Part shown: positions 1-48,270 of the stretch, in pieces | How the letters are laid out: each line of letters starts with the position of its first letter | Position numbering within the stretch: the first letter of the stretch is position 1 | Assembly (NCBI RefSeq): GCF_044324875.1 | Contig: NZ_CP172186.1 | Length of the DNA stretch: 64,000 bases | Reading direction: 5' to 3' (one strand) | From: Escherichia coli | GTDB lineage: Bacteria > Pseudomonadota > Gammaproteobacteria > Enterobacterales > Enterobacteriaceae | The notes under the pieces: generated by a model | What the model was told of the DNA's origin: nothing | The model's database searches: none | The model's input: only the letters and a program-made list of their open reading frames with translations | Translations under genes and position numbers: made by a program

Positions 1-271
1 TTCCGCCATTTCTTCCTGAAGTGCGCTGATTCGCTCCTGTGCTTCCTGTATCTGCCGTTCGGTTTTTGCACGAAGTTTTTCTGAGCTTTTACCGAACTGC
101 ATACGTTGCAGTTTCGCAACCAGCGCCTTCAGCCGGTTGATTTCGGAAGCATAAGCCGCCACCCGCTGTGAGAGCAGGCGGTTGTATTCAGCCATCTGGC
201 GGATGGTGTCCTGTTGCGTCTGCAACAGTGCCCGCAGGCGGGCGTTCTCATGAGCAAGTGAGGTGTCCATA
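1..271 (-). CDS. tnpC: IS66-family transposase TnpC, N-terminal part only (continues past window start)
   Basis: Manual minus-strand translation from ATG at 271 gives MDTSLAHENARLRALLQTQQDTIRQMAEYNRLLSQRV..., an uninterrupted heptad-rich N-terminus typical of IS66 TnpC; sits directly downstream of tnpB as in IS66 operons. Confidence 0.7.
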
Positions 272-289
272 TCCTCACTTTACAACGGG

Positions 290-637
290 TTATATGCGGA
301 TTCCAGCGCGTTCCGTTCGTTTCGGGTGCTTCCAGTTGATACCTTCAAGAAGCATGGATAACTGAGCCGGAGTAAGGTGCACCTTGCCGTCACGGGTGAC
401 TGGCCAGACGAAGCGGCCCCGCTCCAGGCGTTTGGTGAAGAGGCACAGTCCGTCACTGTCAGCCCACAACACTTTTATCTGGTCACCCCGGCGTCCGCGG
501 AAGATGAACAGGTGTCCGGAGAACGGGTCATCCTTCAGGACGTTCTGAACTTTTGATGCCAGGCCGTTAAAGCCATTTCGCATATCGGTGATACCTGCAA
601 CCAGCCAGATACGCGAACCTGCAGGGAGAGATATCAT
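290..637 (-). CDS. tnpB: IS66-family accessory protein TnpB (Orf2)
   Basis: 115-aa ORF MISLPAGSRIWLVAGITDMRNGFNGLA... recognised as IS66 Orf2; stop/start overlap with upstream ORF. Confidence 0.9.
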   Translation of the reverse strand: MISLPAGSRIWLVAGITDMRNGFNGLASKVQNVLKDDPFSGHLFIFRGRRGDQIKVLWADSDGLCLFTKRLERGRFVWPVTRDGKVHLTPAQLSMLLEGINWKHPKRTERAGIRI

Positions 638-1314
638 CAGTGGCTGCTCCCTTTTATTTCGCGGATAAGTGTCTGTAATAACGCCGGCGTCAGTTTACCT
701 TTAAGCCTGAGAGTTCCGGCCGGCAGAACCAGCTCACAACACAGACTGTCGGACGGTGTATTTATCTGCTCTGGTTCCTGTGCGGGGGCCGGGATTTTAT
801 TATCCGGCTCCGGCGTTAACGTCACGGGAAGCAGTGCCGGCATATTTTTTCCGGAAGGCAGCAGGCCACCTTTCCGGTATTGATGGCGCCAGTTGAAGAG
901 CAGGTTATCGTTGATTCCGTTTTCCCGGGCGATCTGCGCCACACAGGCTCCGGGCTGCAGTGACTGCTCCACTAAGGCGATTTTAAACTCATAAGGGAAG
1001 TTGGGCCGCCGGGGACGTTTTTTTACCACGGGGGCTTCGGATATAACGGTGCTTTCAGGACGTACGACTGGTACCGTGGAAAATTGTCCGTAAAGGCAGG
1101 CATCAAGTTCCTGCTCCGACATGCCTGCGGGCAAAGGCCACGAAAGGCCAGCTCTCCGAAAGCGCACGAACATACTACAAACTGTTGATTTTGGTACACC
1201 CAGGCGACGCCCGGCCACAACCCGGGGTAAATGTTCTTCAAAGTGAAGACGTAAAGCTTCAGTGATCCAGGTCCGGTGTTTCATACGATAGTGTCCATTA
1301 AAAATGATGGACAT
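637..1314 (-). CDS. IS66-family Orf1 (TnpA)-like HTH protein; N-terminal ~95 aa resemble an IS21-family IstA N-terminus (possible in-frame fusion)
   Basis: C-terminal part (RRPNFPYEFKIALVEQS...AQIARENGINDNLLFNWRHQYRKG) has a transposase HTH pattern; N-terminal part (..GVPKSTVCSMFVRFRRAGLSWPLPAGMSEQELD) parallels the IstA N-terminus at 8063..9598 (..ASSLSWPLPADISHDTLE). Confidence 0.55.
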   Translation of the reverse strand: MSIIFNGHYRMKHRTWITEALRLHFEEHLPRVVAGRRLGVPKSTVCSMFVRFRRAGLSWPLPAGMSEQELDACLYGQFSTVPVVRPESTVISEAPVVKKRPRRPNFPYEFKIALVEQSLQPGACVAQIARENGINDNLLFNWRHQYRKGGLLPSGKNMPALLPVTLTPEPDNKIPAPAQEPEQINTPSDSLCCELVLPAGTLRLKGKLTPALLQTLIREIKGSSH

Positions 1315-1523
1315 TATTTTTGTAGAGCCGGAGGAAACAGACCAGACGGTTTAAATGAGCCGGTTACTTCCCGACAGACGACTCGGTGAAAAAAGTGGTG
1401 TGGCTGGCAATCCAGTCTGCGTCCCGGAAATGGACGATGCCGTTGAAGGACTGGCGAATGGCAATGAGCCGCTTTATTATCGAGTTCGGTGACCGCCTGG
1501 ACGGTCACTTCTGAGAAAGGCAT
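1314..1523 (-). CDS. hypothetical ORF, possibly non-coding remnant
   Basis: 69-aa ORF from track only; no recognisable motif. Confidence 0.15.
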   Translation of the reverse strand: MPFSEVTVQAVTELDNKAAHCHSPVLQRHRPFPGRRLDCQPHHFFHRVVCREVTGSFKPSGLFPPALQK

Positions 1524-1589
1524 TTACACAGAATCTTAAACAGGCTCAAGTGAAGCTAAGCACACAATCAATTCAGGTCTTTGACATCC

Positions 1590-1658
1590 TCCATCTTAAC
1601 TTCCAAAGGGTACTCCCGCCGACATAAGGCGGGAGTACCCTTTGGAAGTTAAGATGGA
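1590..1658. repeat. perfect 31-bp inverted repeat with 7-bp spacer (tccatcttaacttccaaagggtactcccgcc / gacataa / ggcgggagtaccctttggaagttaagatgga)
   Basis: Read directly; arms are exact reverse complements; related motif ttgacatcctcca occurs at about 1581 and 1759 and inverted at about 1782. Confidence 0.9.
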
Positions 1659-1801
1659 AAACCGACATAAGAACCCTCTGTTATCCTGAAACTCTTATAT
1701 TTATATAACTTGTGAAGGCGTTATGCACACAACCAATCTTCGCAAAGTCGGCGTCTCGTTGACATCCTCCACGCCCTGACGAATGTGGAGGAATGTCAAT
1801 A

Positions 1802-4075
1802 TTAATGTCCGGGCCACTCCTGTTGTTCAGTGACGTGATGTGATATTTCTTCTTTAGCTGTAGCCTCATTCTGGAGGTTTGAAGTAAATATACGCTCCAT
1901 TGTTTGTGCAACCGATGGTGGCATTTTTTCTTCCACACGTTCCTCTTCCGGACAACTCTGTGTGATATAGCATACGTGCCGTTCTTCCCGGGATGTGGTA
2001 TTGATGATGTGAACTGCCTTGTTCCACAGGCTGTTTCCCCGGGCAGAGATATCTGTATCATATTGCGGAAGCAGATCCAGCGATGTTTGTGTTTCGTTAA
2101 GCTGCTTCTGGAAGGTATCGATGATACGGTAAGGCTCTGTACGGTTTTTACGACGTTTACGGGATGGTTTTGCTGTCAGTACACCAATAATGCTGCTGAC
2201 ATGCTCCGGTGTGGGAAAACGGCGCTGCACTGTCCTGGGGACGAGACGGCGGAGACGCTCCAGGCGGGGGGCTTCAACGGAAATATAGCGGTTGATGACC
2301 ACCGGATCACTGTCGCAACTTTTCTCGCTGTCCGGAATATACACAGAGGCTGACGGCACCACATCCCCCTGGAAAACGGTAAAGAACTCACCGGCATTCA
2401 GTCTGATCAAATCCTGCACGTCGATTTTGCTTTCCATCTGGATGGTGATCTGGTTACCGTCCACCCAGGACTCACCCATCACACCATCGTGGCGCTGCAG
2501 GCTGCCCATTCTGGCCCGAGCCTCTTCACCGGCGGCATTTTTCACCGTTCTTGCCGTTTTGTCGTCACTGACAATGCGTCCGGCGAATTTGGTGCCGGCG
2601 TTCTGCATCAGTGTGGCGGTGTTGGTGGCGGAGGTCTGCCCTTCAATTCGCTCCTGATCCTGCGCCATCATTATCAGGGAAAACTCCAGTGAACGTACCT
2701 GGGTGGCCTCCACAGCAATGCGGTCTGTGTAGTAGGCACCGACTTCGTCAAGGATACAGATATAGGGGAAGCGGCCTTTGTATTTTTTTACTTCCAGGGT
2801 CTGTGCGTCTGTGCCTTCCAGGCGGTAGCCCAGGTCACGGGCGAGGATCATGCTCTGCTGGGTGATGAACATACGACCGAGTGCCGACGTGGTATGGGCT
2901 GATGTGTCCAGTGCGGGGATCATCACAATCAGAATTCGGTCGCTGTGGATACTGTCGCGAATATCGATGTCGCCGGCATCTGCCGCAAAGACGTCCCCGA
3001 AGGTTTCGGCAAAGGTTGTGAATGTTTCCGAGAACTGACCGGAGAGATAAGCATGCTGTTTACGGGGCTCCTCAGTCCAGGCTGACGGCGTTCTCACCAG
3101 TGACATATCGAATCCCGGAACGTCCTGCAGGTAATTTCTCAGTGGTGCGATGGCTTCTTCCGGCCACTGGTCATCAAGCCCACGGCAATAGAGTTTTGCC
3201 ATACCTTCCAGCGTCATATGCTCCCGTAACATCTGCAGGGACATGGTTTTTCTTTCCCGGACGCACCAGAATTTTGTGCCAAAGACCAGGGCTTTGTTCA
3301 TGGCTATCGCCCGTGACTGCCATTCACCCCCCTGAACGTTCTGGGGAAGCATGGACTGCATGGTTTCGGCGGTGAAGGCTTCGGTGCTGAATGCGAACGG
3401 GTTCCAGGTGTTTGACTGTGGGCGGGATTTTTCGCCGCTCTGAATGATTTCACTGCGGGATTTTCCGCCGTTCATGAAGTTGATGACCTCGATATCATCC
3501 TCCCGGCCAAAACGTCGGGAGAGATACCAGATTGTCCTCGTGGTATCGTTCTGTGCCTTTCCGTCAACAAAGGTAAAGCCTCTTCCCCAGCAGAGAGGGT
3601 TGAGCAGCCAGGCAAAGGTGGTTTCTGTTTTACCGCCACCGGTGGTGGAAAAAAATATGATATGCCGGGTGAGGTCATCCATGCTCAGCCAGAGCTCACG
3701 ACCGATATCGTTGATACGGCGGTAACCGACATAAAAAATCCCCCGTGCGGGGGATGTTTCATCTGCTTCATACTGAAACAGGGTGGGCCAGAAGCTGAAG
3801 AGGCTTCGCCTGACCTTTCTGTCCTGGGAGGGGTCATCAAGGCTGAGCGTCATGGGCATACGCAGGGGGCATCGCCAGCGTTGCAGCGTGAATATCACGG
3901 AGGTGACCAGGGTGAACAGCAGACAGACAGGAAGGGCCAGTGGCCATATCAGGGCCGTAATGATACTGCCGGCCAGACACAGACCAATGATGTTCAGGTT
4001 GTGCAGTGCATTCCACAGCGGGTTTCCCCAGGCCGTGCGGTGTATGAGGTCAGGATTAACGTGATGCTGGCTCAT
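1802..4075 (-). CDS. trbC: type IV coupling protein, DotL/IcmO-like (IncI1 TrbC-like)
   Basis: 757 aa; N-terminal TM segments; Walker A FFSTTGGGKTET; last gene of trbA-trbB-trbC arrangement. Confidence 0.8.
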   Translation of the reverse strand: MSQHHVNPDLIHRTAWGNPLWNALHNLNIIGLCLAGSIITALIWPLALPVCLLFTLVTSVIFTLQRWRCPLRMPMTLSLDDPSQDRKVRRSLFSFWPTLFQYEADETSPARGIFYVGYRRINDIGRELWLSMDDLTRHIIFFSTTGGGKTETTFAWLLNPLCWGRGFTFVDGKAQNDTTRTIWYLSRRFGREDDIEVINFMNGGKSRSEIIQSGEKSRPQSNTWNPFAFSTEAFTAETMQSMLPQNVQGGEWQSRAIAMNKALVFGTKFWCVRERKTMSLQMLREHMTLEGMAKLYCRGLDDQWPEEAIAPLRNYLQDVPGFDMSLVRTPSAWTEEPRKQHAYLSGQFSETFTTFAETFGDVFAADAGDIDIRDSIHSDRILIVMIPALDTSAHTTSALGRMFITQQSMILARDLGYRLEGTDAQTLEVKKYKGRFPYICILDEVGAYYTDRIAVEATQVRSLEFSLIMMAQDQERIEGQTSATNTATLMQNAGTKFAGRIVSDDKTARTVKNAAGEEARARMGSLQRHDGVMGESWVDGNQITIQMESKIDVQDLIRLNAGEFFTVFQGDVVPSASVYIPDSEKSCDSDPVVINRYISVEAPRLERLRRLVPRTVQRRFPTPEHVSSIIGVLTAKPSRKRRKNRTEPYRIIDTFQKQLNETQTSLDLLPQYDTDISARGNSLWNKAVHIINTTSREERHVCYITQSCPEEERVEEKMPPSVAQTMERIFTSNLQNEATAKEEISHHVTEQQEWPGH

Positions 4076-5174
4076 TGTGATTATCCTCGGTATCTGTGGC
4101 TTTCAGGAACAGGCTGACGGTAGTGGCGTCTTTCAGGATGCCGGACGGCAGGTGCCAGCCGGTATCGGATAACACCCATGGGGTACCGCCAAAACCGAAC
4201 TGGCGGAAAGCCTGGTTATTGACATCGATGGCAGCACGAGCAGCGGTCAGACACTTTTCATCCGGTGCAGCCGGTGCATCGCCGGTGGGTGCCATACCAC
4301 CGTCTGCGGAATACAGCTGATGCCATCCGGTCGCCCGTTTTTGTGCGTCCGGTTCACACAGCAGTGGCGCAGTCCGGTTTGTGCTGGCCTCTCCGCCGAT
4401 TACGGAGACCGGATAAATCACCACGCTGAATTCCCGGGCCAGTTGCTTAAGCGCGGGCTCCAGAAGACGGCAGTTGATGCATGCGGGGTCAAGGAAGGCG
4501 TAGAGTGTGCGTTCATGACCAGTGGAGAGATTAATGGTGAACATACCCCGGTCCGCGTTGCGTTTAAGTACAGTGGCCAGATTACGGCGGGCTTCAGCGA
4601 CCAGAGTATTTTTGTCTGCTGTTATCGCCGGGGTAGCGGATGTCTCCTGCATTTCCTGTGATGCCGGGTGAACGATTTCATTTTTCGTCTCTGACGGGGC
4701 TACTGACCGGACAATTTCCTTGTCGATGTGTAATGGTGCTGTTTCTGTTACGGATTCTGTGACAGGTACCCTGAGAGGGGAATCGCTGTCCGGTTTCAGT
4801 AAAATATATCCGGCTGTTACCGCTGTCAGAAGTGCCAGCACTAATCCTGCACCGTATATCAGCCCTCTCATGAAGCTGGTTTTCCGGGCAGGAAGTTCTG
4901 CATATGCCGCGCTCAGACAGCTGTCAATCGCGGAGAGCATTCTGCCGATGTGATGTCCGGGACGTTCAGTATCAACGGTATCAACAAGCAGTGTTTCGGT
5001 TATTTCACGAAAAGGGGTGCTGAAGGACAGGTGCATCAGCCTGTTATTACGGTTAATCAGTGCGCCCAGTTCTGTAACCGGCAGGATGGCAATAACCTCC
5101 TGACCACCGTCAGGGTACAGGGCGGTCAGGGACAGGTGTTTATTGTTCAGTGTTGCAGTGTAGCGGATGGTCAT
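4056..5174 (-). CDS. trbB: thioredoxin-fold protein with CxxC motif (TrbB-like)
   Basis: 372 aa; TM/signal-like N-terminal region; motif LDPACINCRLLEPA; position between trbA and trbC. Confidence 0.65.
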   Translation of the reverse strand: MTIRYTATLNNKHLSLTALYPDGGQEVIAILPVTELGALINRNNRLMHLSFSTPFREITETLLVDTVDTERPGHHIGRMLSAIDSCLSAAYAELPARKTSFMRGLIYGAGLVLALLTAVTAGYILLKPDSDSPLRVPVTESVTETAPLHIDKEIVRSVAPSETKNEIVHPASQEMQETSATPAITADKNTLVAEARRNLATVLKRNADRGMFTINLSTGHERTLYAFLDPACINCRLLEPALKQLAREFSVVIYPVSVIGGEASTNRTAPLLCEPDAQKRATGWHQLYSADGGMAPTGDAPAAPDEKCLTAARAAIDVNNQAFRQFGFGGTPWVLSDTGWHLPSGILKDATTVSLFLKATDTEDNHNEPASR

Positions 5175-6487
5175 TGTGCTTTTTCCTTGTCGGCGGGATG
5201 CTGTTTTTCGGTGGTTTCGGTGGTTTCGGTGGTTTCGGTGGTTTCGGTGGTTTCGGTGGTTTCGGTGGTTTCACCAGTGTCAGTGTCTTCGTCGTTATCA
5301 TGGCGGCGGGGTATCACGTCATCCGTGAGTGACCAGCGGGTCCTGATCTGACGTTTACGATCGCGATCTGGCTGAGGTTCGTCCCATATCAGGCCCAGCC
5401 CCAGCATGTCCCGTCGAAGCCCTTCAATGGCCTCTTCCACACAGGGTTCCGGGCAGGGGAGGCCGAGACGGCTGGCTTCATTTTCTGCCCGGGCAACGGC
5501 CACCACGCCGGCCCCTTCGATGAAGCCTTTTGTGGTGTTTGCCCGGTGAAGGGCATAGAAGAGCGTCCGGTCAACGCCCTTGAGCCACAGCCAGTTCGGA
5601 GGCGTCAGGCGCAAATCATGTGCGTAAAGCCAGACCAGACCGCTGCGAACGTAACGGTGCTGCCTGAGCCACTTTTGTGCGCCTTCTGTTTTGATGACCC
5701 GGATAAAGGCGTTTCTGGCCAGTGAATACACCGGCGTGCTGAAACGCCCCTGGTCCCGTTTACTTTTGAGCCTGCAGGAGAGATTGAGGTTGTTCATCAG
5801 GGCTACCGCTGCTTTCCGGTCACCGAGGAAGAACTGCAGGCCAAAGATGGCAAAGAGCGCTTTTTCATGTGGGGCCATGTCTTTCCAGCTGGTCAGTGGT
5901 TGCCCCAGTTGCGCCATGAAGCACTGGCGTGTGGACGCAACATCGAGCTGCATGTTGCGGATAAGGTTGTTCTGCTCCACAAAGGCTTCGGGGGTTAGTG
6001 CGACACGGCGCTCGGGACGTTTTTGTCCGTGGAAGAGTCTGTTGTTGTCTCCGTCAGCCAGAACGGGGGCGATCGCCGGTGACAGAGCTGAAAAAATATG
6101 GGGCAGTGTGTGGATATTCAGTGGCCTGCGGGTAAAACGGGGCTGGGCCGGATGGTGAAACCACATCCACAGAAAGCCGAATGTCATGGGAAGCAGAATC
6201 AGCCAGAGGATCCCCACTGTCCGGGACATAACATCCAGCCACTGGCTGAAAGTGATGGTTGCCGCGTTGTTAGCAGTGATGGCCAGCAGGTTGTAACGGG
6301 GGACGGCAAAGTTGTGAAAGGGCCCCCAGTCAATCATGCCCCACAGTGTGTGCAGGATCAGGCAGGAGGCGAAGACGATTTCAGGTAAAAAGCGCCAGAT
6401 GATAATCGCAAAGAGCAGGCATATGGCACCGACGATATACCATATAGCCATTGGATCTTCGGCGGCAGACGTCTGTTGGTAAGACAC
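5171..6487 (-). CDS. trbA: inner-membrane protein (TrbA-like, DotM/IcmP-like) with C-terminal (ETT)7 repeat tail
   Basis: 438 aa; several hydrophobic helices; C-terminus TGETTETTETTETTETTETTETTEKQ encoded by the 9-bp tandem repeat. Confidence 0.65.
   Translation of the reverse strand: MSYQQTSAAEDPMAIWYIVGAICLLFAIIIWRFLPEIVFASCLILHTLWGMIDWGPFHNFAVPRYNLLAITANNAATITFSQWLDVMSRTVGILWLILLPMTFGFLWMWFHHPAQPRFTRRPLNIHTLPHIFSALSPAIAPVLADGDNNRLFHGQKRPERRVALTPEAFVEQNNLIRNMQLDVASTRQCFMAQLGQPLTSWKDMAPHEKALFAIFGLQFFLGDRKAAVALMNNLNLSCRLKSKRDQGRFSTPVYSLARNAFIRVIKTEGAQKWLRQHRYVRSGLVWLYAHDLRLTPPNWLWLKGVDRTLFYALHRANTTKGFIEGAGVVAVARAENEASRLGLPCPEPCVEEAIEGLRRDMLGLGLIWDEPQPDRDRKRQIRTRWSLTDDVIPRRHDNDEDTDTGETTETTETTETTETTETTETTEKQHPADKEKAQ
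5207..5269. repeat. 7 perfect tandem copies of 9-bp unit ttcggtggt inside trbA
   Basis: Read directly from sequence; in-frame, encodes (ETT)n on minus strand. Confidence 0.95.
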
Positions 6488-6643
6488 GGGGATTCCTCCA
6501 TAGATGAATGGATAAATTTCGGGATTAAGTCGGGTGGCATGAATGCGAATCAGCGCCGGTAATAACCGGACAGGAATGAATTCAACAGGACATTTTTACA
6601 GAGAAGAGCGAACGGCAGAAGGTGGTGGGAGACAGGTACAAAA

Positions 6644-6680
6644 AAACCGACTGGTGAGGCCGGTTTTTTTGCGATTCCGG
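6644..6680. terminator. putative bidirectional intrinsic terminator (A7-CCG..CGG-T7 hairpin)
   Basis: aaaaaaaccgactggtgaggccggttttttt: short GC-anchored stem flanked by A-run and T-run; lies between IS21 end and trbA promoter region. Confidence 0.4.
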
Positions 6681-6797
6681 GGTGGAGTTGGTGGCTCTGA
6701 CCGGAGGAAGTCTCTTTTCAGCTAACAATGAGAGAGCTGTTGTGACAGGCAATGTAAGAGTAAGCAGCAGTGATTTCCTCCATTGACGGAGAAACGG

Positions 6798-6881
6798 ATG
6801 ATTAACCTGTTAATCATCGTTCTCAGGGCGGTTGTTGCTGTGGCTAACGCAGTGATAGCTCTCCGGGAACTGGTTGACTGA
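6798..6881 (+). CDS. candidate small hydrophobic peptide (27 aa, MINLLIIVLRAVVAVANAVIALRELVD)
   Basis: ATG preceded by GGAG at 6-nt spacing; start codon lies inside a 10-bp palindrome (gatgattaac-ct-gttaatcatc, 6797..6818); stable hairpin 6901..6930 downstream; below track size cutoff. Confidence 0.35.
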   Translation: MINLLIIVLRAVVAVANAVIALRELVD

Positions 6882-6943
6882 TAATCCCGGAAACGTACTT
6901 AAGGGCAGAGGGTCACCTCCTTCTGCCCTTTAACAAAATATGC

Positions 6944-7120
6944 TCAGGTTAAAAATCGAAAACCTTCCTGCACTTCCTGTGCCTGTTCCCGTGAGCCAAA
7001 CATGAGCCGGCTTTTACCCGGAACTCCCCAGGAAATATATTCTACATCCACCCACCATTTTCCGTATTCTTCATACGGTCCGGATATCACTTTAGTGACA
7101 AATGCATCAATCAGGTTCAT
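6944..7120 (-). CDS. candidate small protein (58 aa, MNLIDAFVTKVISGPYEEYGKWWVDVEYISWGVPGKSRLMFGSREQAQEVQEGFRFLT)
   Basis: Manual translation; AAGGTG-like RBS upstream; convergent with the 27-aa ORF and sharing the 6901..6930 hairpin; below track size cutoff. Confidence 0.35.
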   Translation of the reverse strand: MNLIDAFVTKVISGPYEEYGKWWVDVEYISWGVPGKSRLMFGSREQAQEVQEGFRFLT

Positions 7121-7290
7121 TTTTACACCTTTCTGTTATTCTGCTTATTACGACCAGCAGACAGCAAATATTAAAAATAACGCGGCGGTAATGCGTATTC
7201 CGCTCTATTCGATCACGGATTGGCATCGAAGTCCGATCAGCGATTCGCATCCATTCGATCAACCGGGAACTTAACTTTTTCTACCGCTTT

Positions 7291-8046
7291 TTAACGCGTT
7301 TTTTCGCTGCTTTCCACTACCGGGGGATTTTTCCTCAGTGACTCTCCCTGAAGGACCACTCGGTGTGAGTTATGTACCAGTCTGTCCAGGATGGCATCTG
7401 CTGTTGTTGGGTTCTCCATCAGACCATGCCATTTATCTACCGGGAACTGGCTTACCACTATCGTGCTGCTTTGTCCGTAACGATCCTCTATGAGCTCCAG
7501 AAGGTCATTACACTGGGCGTTACTTAACTGTTCCAGCCCCAGATCGTCCAGGATTAGAACCTGTATTTTTTGCAACTGTTTCAGATATTTCAGCCAGCTG
7601 CCATCAACACGTCCCTGAGCCAGTTGTTCCAGTAATCGCCCGGTTCTACAGTACCGGACGCTGTGTTTCTGTCGACATGCCTGTTCGCCCAGCGCATTGG
7701 CTATCCAGCTCTTGCCACATCCTGTCGGACCGGTTATCAGCAGGTTTTTCCTGTGGGTTATGTAGTGGCCGTTCAGCAGTTCTCTCATCTGTTCAGCCCG
7801 CAGACCTCTTGAGGCCGGATAGCGCAGCCCTTCCGGTGTTGCCTGGTATTTCAGGCCGGCATTTTTTCTCAACCGTGCCACACGGCTGTTTTCCCTGCTC
7901 AGAAGCTCGTCATCAACCAGCAGCGTCAGCCTTTCCTCGAACGACAGTTCGTCGTAGGTCTGAGGCGTTTCCCGCTGCCGTATCAGGCTCCCGGCCATCG
8001 CCGGGAGTTTCAGTTGGGTCAGTTTGTTTAACAGGTTATCACTCAT
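7291..8046 (-). CDS. istB: IS21-family helper ATPase IstB
   Basis: Walker A GPTGCGKSW, Walker B VLILDDLG; start taken at MSDNLLNKL (track ORF 7291..8289 begins further upstream). Confidence 0.85.
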   Translation of the reverse strand: MSDNLLNKLTQLKLPAMAGSLIRQRETPQTYDELSFEERLTLLVDDELLSRENSRVARLRKNAGLKYQATPEGLRYPASRGLRAEQMRELLNGHYITHRKNLLITGPTGCGKSWIANALGEQACRQKHSVRYCRTGRLLEQLAQGRVDGSWLKYLKQLQKIQVLILDDLGLEQLSNAQCNDLLELIEDRYGQSSTIVVSQFPVDKWHGLMENPTTADAILDRLVHNSHRVVLQGESLRKNPPVVESSEKTR

Positions 8047-8062
8047 ACTGTTGTTCCTTCTG

Positions 8063-9598
8063 TCAGTGGTAGTAGCCCGGACCACGCAGGTTTTCATGCT
8101 CTGAAGCATATGCCGGATGTTGTTCGCCCTGGCGGGATAATGGAAGCTCCAGGTTCTCCCGATGGTGACGCAGCAGATTGTCGATAAAGCGTCTGTCAGG
8201 GGCGTTATAGTGCAGGGCAACGTAACAGGCCTTTTCCAGCCGTTCCGGGCCGTATTTTTTCTGAAGTGCCAGCAGCCCCAGAACTGCACGATAAGCCAGT
8301 TCCGGATGGGGTTTTGCCTTCAGCATGGATTCAACCACCCGGCCTGTGGACGGGCCCGTACGTTTTCCCTGCTCGATCAGGCGTTCCGGTGTCCATGTCC
8401 CGTGCTGCCGGTGGCGCTCTGGCATGTGAAGCGGATTGGTTGTGTGTTTATATTCATGTGTGCTGCGCGGATGTTGCGCCACACACTGCCCCTTGTGCCA
8501 GAGCTGTACCACCGACTGCCCCGCCTTCAGTGACAGACGCTGACCGACCAGTTCGTGTGGAACGGAGTACCAGTGACGGGCATATTCAACGTGGTAGTCA
8601 GGGCCAACCTTCACAGCTTTGTATTCCGTGTATTCATAAGGTGCCAGAGGCAGCGGAGAGAGTGCTGGCGCATCCAGTATGCGGAAGCGTTCTGCACGGG
8701 TTTGATTGCCGTACCCCTTCATTGGCCGGTTATTCATGTCTGTCAGTAACTCCCTAAGGCGCGCATTCAGCGCCCTGAGCGTGTGGAAGGTTTCATTACG
8801 GATGCGGGCAAGAAGCCATCGTTCAACGATGAGGACGCCGTTTTCTGCTTTTGGTTTATCTTTAGGTTTGCGTGGTCGGGCCGGGATGATAACCGTGCCA
8901 TAGTGCTCAGCCAGTGCCTGATAACTGTCGTTGATGACAGGCTCATATCGATCGGCCTTTTTCACTGCGCTTCTGAGGTTATCGGGGATGAGCAGCTTCG
9001 GTACGCCGCCCAGGAAGGTCAGGCAACGGCTGTGGGCATTTAACCATGACATCATGTCCTGACCTTCGCACGCTTCAACGTAGGTATAGTTGGACGCCCC
9101 CATTACGGCCACGAAGATTGCCACGCGGCGTATCTCACCGGTGTCCGGATTAATAACAGGAACCGTAGGACCACAGAAGTCGATAAAAAGCTTTTCGCCG
9201 GCACGATGCTCCTGGCGCATGGAGAGACGTCGCGTTTTTTTCCACTCCCGGTAGCAACGGCAGAAGTGCGAGTATCCCATCGCTTTGTTACCCGCCTGTG
9301 CCTTGTATTCCATCCACAACAGTTGCCGCGTCACACCTGGTTTTCTCATTTCCGTATCGAAGTACAACATGTCAGGCATTACAAGCTCTGATGCAAAGGT
9401 GTCTTTGGGCGGAAAAATGAGTTTCTCCAGCGTGTCATGGGATATATCAGCAGGTAATGGCCATGACAGAGAAGAGGCTTTGAAGCGGGCAAGAACCTCA
9501 AAAACGGTTGAGGCGCTGATGTGTAACGTCAGTCCGATACAACGGTTAGTCAGCTTCTTGTCGAACTTGAGCTGAAGGATCTTAAAACAGGTTTCCAT
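8063..9598 (-). CDS. istA: IS21-family transposase IstA
   Basis: N-terminal HTH, DDE-type core; start taken at METCFKILQ with RBS (track ORF extends to 9709). Confidence 0.85.
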   Translation of the reverse strand: METCFKILQLKFDKKLTNRCIGLTLHISASTVFEVLARFKASSLSWPLPADISHDTLEKLIFPPKDTFASELVMPDMLYFDTEMRKPGVTRQLLWMEYKAQAGNKAMGYSHFCRCYREWKKTRRLSMRQEHRAGEKLFIDFCGPTVPVINPDTGEIRRVAIFVAVMGASNYTYVEACEGQDMMSWLNAHSRCLTFLGGVPKLLIPDNLRSAVKKADRYEPVINDSYQALAEHYGTVIIPARPRKPKDKPKAENGVLIVERWLLARIRNETFHTLRALNARLRELLTDMNNRPMKGYGNQTRAERFRILDAPALSPLPLAPYEYTEYKAVKVGPDYHVEYARHWYSVPHELVGQRLSLKAGQSVVQLWHKGQCVAQHPRSTHEYKHTTNPLHMPERHRQHGTWTPERLIEQGKRTGPSTGRVVESMLKAKPHPELAYRAVLGLLALQKKYGPERLEKACYVALHYNAPDRRFIDNLLRHHRENLELPLSRQGEQHPAYASEHENLRGPGYYH

Positions 9599-11365: not shown

Positions 11366-11577
11366 GAGCTCTCAGCCTCCTCCTTCGTATTTCCGTCAGA
11401 AACACAAACGCCCCGCAGAGAAAATTCGCCAACATTCTCCTTTTTAATGGCGCGCAATGCATCGCGGCAGGCCCGTTCGGTATGAAAGGCCTGGCTGTGC
11501 ACCGCCAGTGTGGGCTGACGGGCATCACCGGAAGAGACATTAAAGGGCGATGAAAGCCAGAAAATCAGTAGCCACAT
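11362..11577 (-). CDS. hypothetical small secreted protein (71 aa) with signal peptide
   Basis: N-terminal hydrophobic MWLLIFWLSSPF; two Cys in mature part. Confidence 0.4.
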   Translation of the reverse strand: MWLLIFWLSSPFNVSSGDARQPTLAVHSQAFHTERACRDALRAIKKENVGEFSLRGVCVSDGNTKEEAESS

Positions 11578-46822: not shown

Positions 46823-47352
46823 ATTAGGGTATCAGGTAGCACTGTTCTGACAGGAAAAATCGCAAATGGAGAACGACTACCTTTGCCGTCTGGTTTTTCT
46901 GCCAGCCAGTGTACCTGGAGCGTCAGCAATGCTGAAAACCCGCATGGCTGGAAGCCAAATTACTTCGCAGGTTCTGTTGCGACATATGATTCGAACAGGA
47001 TTGTGAAGTGTGGTTACTACGATGAATACAATTTTCACGGCGGTACAAACAGGAACGACCTGACGGGGAAATGTAGTTACATTGTGGTTTGCCAGTAAAT
47101 CACTTTGTCATTGGCAAATGGCATGTACAGTTATTTTTCCAATGATGTGTTCTGTCGTATCGCAATAGCCATACCAGGCATTATTGTTTACAGGTATTGA
47201 ACGGACAAGCCAGATAAAGCCAATTCCAGAGCTGCATTCTGCACCACCCCCGATCACCTTCTTACCCATTGGGCAGGTGGCAGTAGCACCAGGCCAGCGG
47301 AGTTTTGATGCTGTTACTTTGACGATTTCAATATCGCCTTTTCCTGCATTTT

Positions 47353-47371
47353 TCCACGAACCGGATTGGCA
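47353..47371 (-). repeat. shufflon 19-bp repeat (inverted; exact reverse complement of 46804..46822)
   Basis: Read directly. Confidence 0.9.
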
Positions 47372-47379
47372 CGGAGGCC

Positions 47380-47398
47380 AGTGCCAATCCGGTATCTG
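47380..47398 (+). repeat. shufflon 19-bp repeat gtgccaatccggtatctgg
   Basis: Read directly; 8 bp from previous repeat. Confidence 0.9.
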
Positions 47399-47848
47399 GA
47401 CAACGACAAAAATGAACTTCACTACCAGTACATACAATATCGGGAAAAATACTCGTAATCTGAGCATTGGCGTACATGCGTACTGCTCGTGGACATACCT
47501 TAATGGCTCGCCTTTTGGTGGTTTTCAGCAGATATACGCCGACCAAAACAAGGTTTGGTATGTGAATAATTATGCGTGGGGAAATTATGAGTCCGGTGGC
47601 ACAATTACAGTGACATGCCTCAACCTTCCTGGTGCCGGAATCTAACCAAAAGGGCAACAGTAAGCATCGACGTGCTCTTCATCAATACCATCTCCGATGC
47701 CGTACATTCTTGTACCTGTCATGACGTACCCGGCAGGGCACTGAATCGGCTTGTAATAAATAGAACCTCCACTTCTGCCACCGATAAAATGTGCGGAGGT
47801 CGCTTCATACCATTTACAGGCAGAATAGTTCACTTTATTGCCTCCAAG

Positions 47849-47867
47849 CCACAAACCGGATTGGCAC
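47849..47867 (-). repeat. shufflon 19-bp repeat (inverted)
   Basis: Read directly. Confidence 0.9.
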
Positions 47868-47875
47868 TGGCCTCC

Positions 47876-47894
47876 GTGCCAATCCGGTGTGTGG
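47876..47894 (+). repeat. shufflon 19-bp repeat gtgccaatccggtgtgtgg
   Basis: Read directly; 8 bp from previous repeat. Confidence 0.9.
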
Positions 47895-48270
47895 GTTGGC
47901 TTTGAATCCTACCCTGTGGGAAGCCCTATCCCGTGGCCATCTGCCACTCCTCCACAAGGCTATCTGTTGATGAACGGCCAGTCGTTTTCCTGTTCCCGGT
48001 ATCCTCAGCTTGCCCGTGCTTATCCTGGCTGTAAATTGCCCGATCTGCGCGGTGTTTTTATCCGTGGCTGGGATAACGGGAAGGGACTTGATGGTGATCG
48101 GAACAGACAACTCCTGAGTTATCAGGCCGATCAATCAGGCGTCTATCACGAACGTGGCGGATGGCTGAAAGGGCATCATAGTGGTATGCCATACTGGGCA
48201 CAGGGGAGTACCACAGAAATGCGTCCCAAAAATATTGCATTCAACTACATTGTTAAAGCCAGCTAGGGAC

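Follow-up and report, generated by a model that had tools for sequence, protein, structure and literature searches.

Just downstream of trbC, in a 64,000-nt stretch of an Escherichia coli contig (NZ_CP172186.1, assembly GCF_044324875.1; the whole stretch is hereafter the window), stands a perfect palindrome at 1590-1658, which raises the question of what such a structure does, or once did, on an IncI1-type plasmid backbone. An earlier reading, made from the letters alone (the sequence-only reading), had considered a small element flanked by inverted repeats, a recombinase or relaxase site, and the end of an insertion sequence (IS); it is partly supported by the analysis described here. The palindrome is very probably a relic derived from the left end (LE) of an IS200/IS605-family element. 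The explanation that accounts best for the whole, and that we hold with moderate confidence, is a scar of two head-to-head copies of this LE (its outermost 41 nt), fused at the LE hairpin and marking a small deletion.

The palindrome, its parent element and its other occurrences

The palindrome consists of two 31-nt arms (1590-1620 and 1628-1658) of 100% complementarity with 7 nt between them, exactly as the sequence-only reading had described it. The count of further copies that was proposed there yields none: the 31-mer arm has no second site within 3 mismatches in the 64-kb window (0 expected from shuffles), and a scan of the same 64 kb returns the palindrome at 1590-1658 as the only long perfect hairpin. 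Folded as single-stranded DNA, either strand reaches about -39 kcal/mol, compared with -9.2 +/- 2.4 in shuffles (z = -12.6).

A BLAST search with the segment, also proposed earlier, maps it to a known IS terminus, the very outcome that the sequence-only reading had named as speaking against itself. About 150 other plasmids and a few chromosomes match, though over no more than left arm, loop and 8 nt, and each of these left-arm matches adjoins an IS200/IS605 tnpA and an oppositely oriented tnpB. The encoded TnpA is assigned to Pfam Y1_Tnp (E = 7e-38) and TnpB, an RNA-guided nuclease, to OrfB_IS605 as well as Cas12f1-like_TNB. Over the 45 nt of window positions 1591-1635, CCAT followed by 41 nt, identity with the target and LE of this IS is 100%, be it on an E. 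coli chromosome or on plasmids of the IncI2 and F types.

The exact ends of this parent element are set by its insertion in traC of an F plasmid (p_STEC379): it extends from CTTAAC to GATGTCAA, is 1818 bp long and has the right terminus ...GGATGTCAA. The insertion lies 3' of CCAT, and its removal restores the TraC reading frame with zero duplicated bases. At least 11 insertions, all independent, have CCAT in front of the LE, with a variable base before it. The LE hairpin has an 8-bp stem and a 7-nt loop, with its foot 18 nt from CCAT; at the right end, the terminal TCAA lies 9 nt past the foot of a hairpin of its own. In IS608 the corresponding spacings are 19 and 10 nt, with TTAC and TCAA (PMC3201880). 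By analogy with the IS608 guide rule, the 4 nt GGTA on the 5' side of the hairpin foot would pair position by position with CCAT. The native LE as a whole is a quasi-palindrome (TCCAAA-GGGTA-stem-loop-stem-GGGAA-TTTGGA).

Against this parent element, the palindrome resolves into the following parts.

1590..1658, no strand: whole palindrome (31+7+31), also found in three other plasmid contexts as a 67-bp structure
1591..1594, plus strand: CCAT target tetranucleotide, cleavage and insertion site of the parent IS, already in the unoccupied relative pRM10042-1
1595..1635, plus strand: 41 nt identical in sequence to the native LE, CTTAAC...GGGTA followed by the hairpin CTCCCGCC-GACATAA-GGCGGGAG
1621..1627, plus strand: hairpin loop GACATAA, the sole asymmetric part; a sister plasmid belonging to another family has it turned round at the identical site
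1636..1653, minus strand: outer part of the second, inverted LE copy, TACCCTTTGGAAGTTAAG, standing where the native IS has GGGAATTTGGACGGGC
1654..1657, minus strand: bottom-strand CCAT target (ATGG on top), already in the unoccupied relative, with analogous cases elsewhere

Downstream of the hairpin the native IS continues into GGGAATTTGGACGGGC, whereas the window continues into TACCCTTTGGAAGTTAAG|ATGG, which exactly reverse-complements the LE with its target; it therefore holds two LEs, one per strand and facing outward, fused at the hairpin. The core of this LE-LE scar is CCAT (1591-1594), 26 nt, the loop GACATAA, 26 nt and ATGG (1654-1657), so that the two CCAT sites are separated by 59 bp only; the outermost T/A pair at 1590/1658 is an extension by chance. 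Both arms correspond to LE positions 1-26, joined at the hairpin, and the hairpin arms supply 8-nt direct repeats in inverted copies. Neither internal IS sequence nor significant TnpA/TnpB coding similarity is found in window positions 1300-1900, no further LE match occurs in the 64-kb window, and the right end of the 1818-bp IS is absent from the scar. A complete, autonomous IS200/IS605 element, with tnpA/tnpB and a right end carrying a hairpin and a cleavage site, is not present in the window.

Comparison with pRM10042-1, an intact relative, shows what the site looks like when it is unoccupied. Its gene order is nikA-nikB-pemI-pemK-spacer-trbC, and the spacer has no palindrome. Window positions 1548-1594 align directly after pemK of this plasmid, where no IS1414 (the IS neighbour of the window, described below) is present, and positions 1654-1801 align directly before its trbC. 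Between them, the palindrome core stands in place of about 205 bp of other sequence. Both plasmids have the same edges, ...TCCAT| to the left and |ATGGAAAACC... to the right; both CCATs, one on the top and one on the bottom strand, already exist in the unoccupied relative. Each junction of the scar has exactly the form CCAT|LE that the chemistry of TnpA produces, and the DNA that once separated the two CCATs has been lost.

The 67-bp unit CCAT-26-7-26-ATGG is found in four unrelated plasmid contexts including the window, and in 4/4 the flanks are non-contiguous in relatives. In pEC16-2-type phage-plasmid-like replicons, the scar replaces 167 bp (relative to NZ_CP061757.1) within a small open reading frame that is intact in more than 80 relatives. 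In Klebsiella pneumoniae pINF237_02, a ColE1-like exc1 segment with homology up to exactly CCAT adjoins it on one side, and a ccdB segment with homology from exactly ATGG onwards on the other. At a second site on pINF237_02, shared with the plasmid of K. pneumoniae FDAARGOS_775, the scar is flanked by internal sequence of an IS3-family transposase gene and by a DUF2913 gene. For the Klebsiella scars (CP032835.1 and NZ_CP040995.1) the left homology ends at CCAT and the right one begins at ATGG, with flanks from unrelated DNA. The palindrome reaches 4, 4, 4 and 5 nt past the IS end in the four contexts, that is, CCAT plus the one chance base in the window.

Two kinds of variation distinguish these copies. 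In the Klebsiella scars both arms carry T-to-C and A-to-G changes, giving a variant (CTTAACCTCC) that is also the LE form of the chromosomal IS copy in K. pneumoniae ATCC 13883; the plasmid NZ_CP040995.1 (FDAARGOS_775) presumably belongs to the same strain. Judged from the arms, this symmetric variant would point to independent formation of the Klebsiella scars. At the identical pEC16-2-family site, with identical arms and flanks, the loop reads GACATAA in pEC16-2 and TTATGTC in two other plasmids including pYLMB53a. Altogether, more than 15 complete assemblies, obtained independently and in several countries, share the identical palindrome structure, which is spread over the four contexts. 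Its conservation is 100% across at least 13 plasmids and reflects a single recent lineage of E. coli plasmids associated with chickens.

Several observations concern the parent IS itself. A scan of genome contigs of species representatives with the LE 41-mer gives one match only, on the K. pneumoniae ATCC 13883 chromosome; the 1818-bp IS is rare among species representatives. A metagenome scan for the LE returns 10 loci, native LEs or a solo LE throughout, and zero new palindromes. On the contigs L014 (1729-1780) and L016 of this set, a solo LE (CCAT, 41 nt and GGGA) abuts unrelated genes just past the hairpin, a further sign of the LE hairpin as a deletion endpoint. In the plasmid collection, the 45-nt right-end terminus of the IS occurs in 240 records and the left end in about 163, and right-end-only relics or derivatives appear to be common. 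The sequence ATGGAAAACC is the flank 3' of the inverted LE both in F traC (p_STEC379 11413-11422) and at window positions 1654-1663, and several other insertion sites are T-rich ahead of CCAT; the target preference of the IS may be TTTTCCAT rather than CCAT alone. Papers on IncI2 mcr-1 plasmids refer to insertions in this region as 'IS200 element' or 'IS683', which are candidate names for the 1818-bp IS.

Formation of the scar and its present role

We give an even chance to an origin by slippage between two IS copies. Two copies would have inserted in opposite orientation, right ends facing and LEs outward, one at a CCAT of the top strand and the other at a CCAT close by on the bottom strand, creating a 1.8-kb inverted repeat with a short spacer that would be unstable. 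Long inverted repeats with a short spacer are badly tolerated by E. coli. As the LE hairpin is itself a small palindrome, the same 8-mers (CTCCCGCC or GGCGGGAG) would be directly repeated in both arms. Replication slipping between these 8-mers would lose both IS bodies and the intervening DNA and leave a perfect palindrome, the choice of the 8-mer setting the orientation of the loop. Both GACATAA and TTATGTC are found at an identical site, which would reflect both slippage registers or, alternatively, a flipping of the loop. A pair of the precursor type exists on p14EC029a, where two IS copies with right ends facing and LEs outward are 6971 bp apart.

Several points weigh against this account. 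The two-copy intermediate is not found at any of the four scars: queries chimeric between flank and native LE retrieve no intermediate for either junction of the pEC16-2 site, and no plasmid of the collection has a native IS copy at a junction of this site or of the window site. The predicted right-end/right-end scar of the same IS has no full-length match in 72,556 plasmids. Two independent opposite-strand insertions within 170-205 bp, seen twice, look frequent for chance; about 4 scars compare with a few dozen independent IS insertions, a frequency that hints at a concerted or local-hop mechanism. In the FDAARGOS_775-type context most right-flank relatives are without ATGG at the junction, and the evidence there is ambiguous.

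The missing intermediate would be no obstacle if one insertion sufficed. A single IS at the top-strand CCAT might, during replication or repair, have caused the nascent strand to fold back on the LE hairpin, copy the left arm outward (quasi-palindrome or fold-back template switching) and re-anneal at an ATGG microhomology downstream, deleting the IS and adjacent DNA. The native LE is already a quasi-palindrome, which favours such switches, and the ATGG pre-exists at the right junction, as is expected of a microhomology. We nevertheless consider this course rather unlikely: microhomology predicts a variable reach past the IS end, whereas the 4, 4, 4 and 5 nt observed are always exactly the CCAT target, and the opposite loop in sister plasmids would require either that the single IS had occupied the opposite strand at the second CCAT or that the loop flipped afterwards. 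The exact CCAT|LE form of both junctions, defined by the chemistry of TnpA, is also what one concerted aberrant TnpA reaction would leave. Here, either an LE-LE synapse would join the cleaved bottom-strand CCAT to the 5' end of the top-strand LE, or the 59-bp LE-LE unit would be a symmetric non-autonomous element that is moved by TnpA and deletes the DNA between inverted CCATs on arrival. Such a reaction fits the occurrence in four contexts, twice on one Klebsiella plasmid, the short and similar size of the replaced segments (167 and 205 bp), and a scar frequency that is high for two independent insertions. We still judge it improbable, as the unit is without a right end or TCAA cleavage site, making canonical single-strand excision impossible, a simple insertion with contiguous flanks is never seen, and identical arms are equally predicted by slippage; moreover, IS608-type TnpA works on one strand only (PMC3201880). 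Taken more broadly, the proposal that the LE-LE palindrome is the signature of an undescribed TnpA-dependent joining of left ends on opposite strands, whether by an LE-LE synapse, by local opposite-strand reinsertion and collapse, or as a symmetric 59-bp element, with deletion of the DNA between inverted CCATs, is doubtful, though we retain it as a minor candidate.

The remaining alternatives do not involve an IS relic. A functional plasmid site (oriT/nic, a single-strand initiation, partition or recombinase site, or a bidirectional terminator between trbC and upstream genes) is suggested by the position between the relaxase operon and trbC in IncI1-type backbones, by the very stable hairpin and by the 100% conservation in at least 13 plasmids. 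This is very improbable, because the palindrome is missing from intact relatives that keep nikAB-pemIK beside trbC, occurs at unrelated places in phage-plasmid-like and Klebsiella plasmids, and is without a T tract, a terminator or promoter consensus, or an Rfam family at threshold; the plasmids that have the palindrome here have lost nikAB from the neighbourhood, and one recent plasmid lineage explains the conservation. Perfect palindromes are also a known class of assembly or sequencing artefact, for example hairpin chimeras, an origin that the independent complete assemblies in four contexts and the lineage-specific symmetric variants leave with practically no credit.

The scans behind these statements cover positions 1300-2000 on both strands. 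They find no T/U tract and no terminator or promoter consensus, in line with the earlier remark that a flanking U-tract is lacking; a Rho-independent terminator is ruled out, there being no terminator-like site on either strand. The Rfam scan of the same interval gives no family at threshold; a sub-threshold microRNA-hairpin model on both strands is a generic hairpin match. An oriT or nik site is contradicted by the order nikA-nikB-pemI-pemK-spacer-trbC of pRM10042-1 with its palindrome-free spacer, although no direct comparison with the R64 oriT was made. The suggestion of a recombinase or relaxase site survives in part: the palindrome derives from a site-specific DNA-processing site of a mobile element, the recognition hairpin of an HUH (Y1) transposase, and is not a relaxase site or oriT. 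HUH (Y1) transposases are distant relatives of relaxases.

Today the palindrome most likely has no function, given its absence from intact nikAB-pemIK-trbC relatives, its presence at unrelated sites, the lack of a terminator tail and a conservation that amounts to one recent lineage. According to the folding model, the sequence can extrude a strong hairpin or cruciform. As read from its sequence, the scar keeps the TnpA hairpin and the cleavage site on both strands and might be nicked if the IS is in the same cell; it could be a potential fragile point whenever the IS shares the cell. For the window, the result removes a false lead, since there is no hidden oriT or novel recombination site. 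More generally, the 67-bp palindrome bounded by CCAT and ATGG is a recognisable footprint of past IS200/IS605 activity at deletion and rearrangement junctions, and annotators could date and orient plasmid rearrangements by such palindromes. The doubled-LE palindrome as a recurrent junction scar appears to be undescribed in the literature searched, whereas its components come from a well-known IS family. Should TnpA be needed for its formation, the scar would represent a deletion-forming side reaction of the 'peel-and-paste' cycle in TnpB-carrying elements; TnpA-dependent left-end joining, if true, would be a new route for TnpA/TnpB elements to sculpt plasmids.

A second element and the plasmid neighbourhood

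The sequence around the palindrome contains traces of another element. The 13-bp motif TTGACATCCTCCA is exact at 1581-1593 and 1759-1771, 178 bp apart, and a near-inverted copy, GTGGAGGAATGTCAA, lies at 1782-1796, all as the sequence-only reading had stated; the latter pairs with 1759-1772 in a 14-bp stem with one bulged A. The reverse complement of the motif, TGGAGGATGTCAA, is the right-end terminus of a TnpB-only IS200/IS605-type element, here called IS-B, which adjoins the 1818-bp IS on IncI2 plasmids. The motifs are thus IS termini, as had been proposed. The further idea of a 220-bp element flanked by inverted repeats does not hold: the TTGACATCCTCCA copies are right-end relics of IS-B and the palindrome is the doubled LE of another IS. 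The features concerned and the neighbouring genes are as follows.

1581..1594, minus strand: terminal 13-14 nt of the IS-B right end (...TGGAGGATGTCAA|), truncated by the palindrome-forming event
1759..1796, minus strand: hairpin with a 14-bp stem and one bulge, right after the trbC stop; at 1759-1789 it matches the last 31 nt of the right end of IS-B with 87% identity
1557..1572, plus strand: flank repeat TAAGCACACAATCAAT, paired with 1722-1737
1722..1737, plus strand: second copy of the flank repeat, TATGCACACAACCAAT, paired with 1557-1572
1..1367, minus strand: IS66-family element (tnpC N-terminus, tnpB, tnpA), inserted into IS1414; context
1368..1547, plus strand: 3' remnant of the IS256-family element IS1414 (transposase C-terminus 1386-1514 and IS end); context, outside the palindrome
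1802..4075, minus strand: IncI1-type trbC, 757 aa, with trbB and trbA next; context

With up to 2 mismatches, TTGACATCCTCCA occurs 4 times in the window against 2.1 expected, which is no enrichment; despite this, the two exact copies are real homologues. Their flanks (1557-1572 and 1722-1737) are also alike, and the two IS-B right-end relics with these flanks are therefore regarded as diverged duplicates. In pRM10042-1, the 205-bp segment that the palindrome replaces opens with a 118-nt stretch (minus strand) whose identity to the final 118 nt of IS-B is 95.8% and which includes 16 codons of the tnpB 3' end. The hairpin at 1759-1796 has the layout TTGACATCC-TCCACG-loop-GTGGA-GGAATGTCAA and may, apart from one extra A and a diverged loop, be a relic of a right-end/right-end fusion. 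The 220-bp stretch is layered debris of two IS200/IS605-type elements, which explains the trbC-proximal spacer. We also note that CCGACATAAG at 1662-1671 repeats, 43 bp downstream, the LE-hairpin loop with its closing bases (1619-1628); it is part of DNA that pre-exists in the unoccupied relative and matches neither IS, and is possibly due to chance or else a very old LE fragment.

The same spacer has received other DNA elsewhere. In NZ_JBUXMJ010000003.1, a restriction-modification cassette lies inside the 205-bp segment, away from the palindrome boundary; it consists of an m5C methyltransferase and a type II restriction endonuclease (1150-4000) within the IS-B relic of the pemK-trbC spacer. 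That this cassette shares the right boundary of the palindrome was considered and rejected, as the cassette is placed within the older relic. By eye, positions of about 1180-1250 of this record are like the region upstream of the IS-B tnpB (about 3450-3500 of the IS-B-bearing locus L012).

To the left of the palindrome, the plasmid backbone resumes at 1548 and reaches the trbC stop codon. The sequence-only reading had considered here the end of an IS21-like element; the neighbour is instead the IS256-family IS1414, and 1548-1594 is backbone that occurs without an IS in pRM10042-1. The IS66-family insertion at 1-1367 that it had recognised is real, with IS1414 rather than an IS21-like element as its host. 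On p135-2 (6183-8798), an IS66-family element is found at the same IS1414 position as in the window (1-1367), in opposite orientation, and on pTB-nb2 an IS66 copy is inserted instead at window position of about 1665. These placements in the window, p135-2 and pTB-nb2 suggest an inversion between IS66 copies or repeated insertion. In the window lineage nikAB-pemIK are gone from beside trbC and IS elements stand in place of nikAB, in agreement with the earlier remark that nikAB and oriT are not recognisable here.

Two further observations concern the remainder of the plasmid. At 47350-47403 and 47844-47899, the window has imperfect inverted repeats with GTGCCAATCCGGT that look like the sfx recombination sites of the IncI1 shufflon, which fits the IncI1-type backbone. 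The 3' end of trbA (5171-6487, minus strand) contains, at about 5190-5260, a tandem 9-bp repeat that encodes (TET)n/(ETT)n at the TrbA C-terminus; in another frame, the same repeat DNA reads PKPPKP.

Comparison with known systems

Nearly precise excision of Tn10 (Ross, Swan and Kleckner 1979; Foster et al. 1981) reportedly leaves a 50-bp palindrome in which two inverted IS copies are reduced to their outer ends, and is said to be a transposase-independent deletion between short repeats inside the inverted arms. The scar described here likewise retains the outer ends of an inverted pair of copies, with a short internal repeat as the joint. Here, however, the element is a single-strand HUH element without terminal inverted repeats, its subterminal hairpin provides the short repeats, the flanks show no 9-bp target duplication, and the DNA between the copies is lost; a precursor at the same two sites is not found.

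The PATEs of haloarchaea are non-coding, terminal-only IS605-type derivatives of about 52 bp that arise via deletion between near-terminal palindromes (Dyall-Smith et al. 2011, PMC3119063). The scar resembles them as a very short IS200/IS605 derivative from a core deletion mediated by repeats. A PATE joins the left and right end of one element in direct orientation at a single site and may stay mobile, in contrast to the scar, which joins two inverted LEs, has no right end and has flanks that are always non-contiguous (4/4 contexts). REP/BIME sequences, with their RAYT (TnpA-REP) transposases, are extragenic hairpin palindromes, often in inverted pairs, related to IS200/IS605 ends (PMC3333891, PMC8266576); a hairpin-forming palindrome tied to IS200/IS605 ends is common to both. 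Read directly, the scar is without the REP-type GTAG, it exists in a handful of plasmid copies as opposed to hundreds of chromosomal ones, and it is identical to the end of an autonomous IS, not to a REP family.

The closest system is the LE of the IS608 type (IS605/IS608). The scar differs from it in that the transposase gene, right end and internal sequence are lacking, which makes it a relic and not an IS, in that the LE is doubled, inverted and fused at the hairpin, and in the target of the parent IS, which is CCAT instead of the TTAC of IS608. In common are the subterminal hairpin, the distance of about 18 nt from target to foot with a putative 4-nt guide complementary to the target, the insertion 3' of a fixed tetranucleotide without duplication, the closure of the right end of the parent IS in TCAA and, above all, the 41 nt that are identical to the LE of a real, active-looking member of the family.

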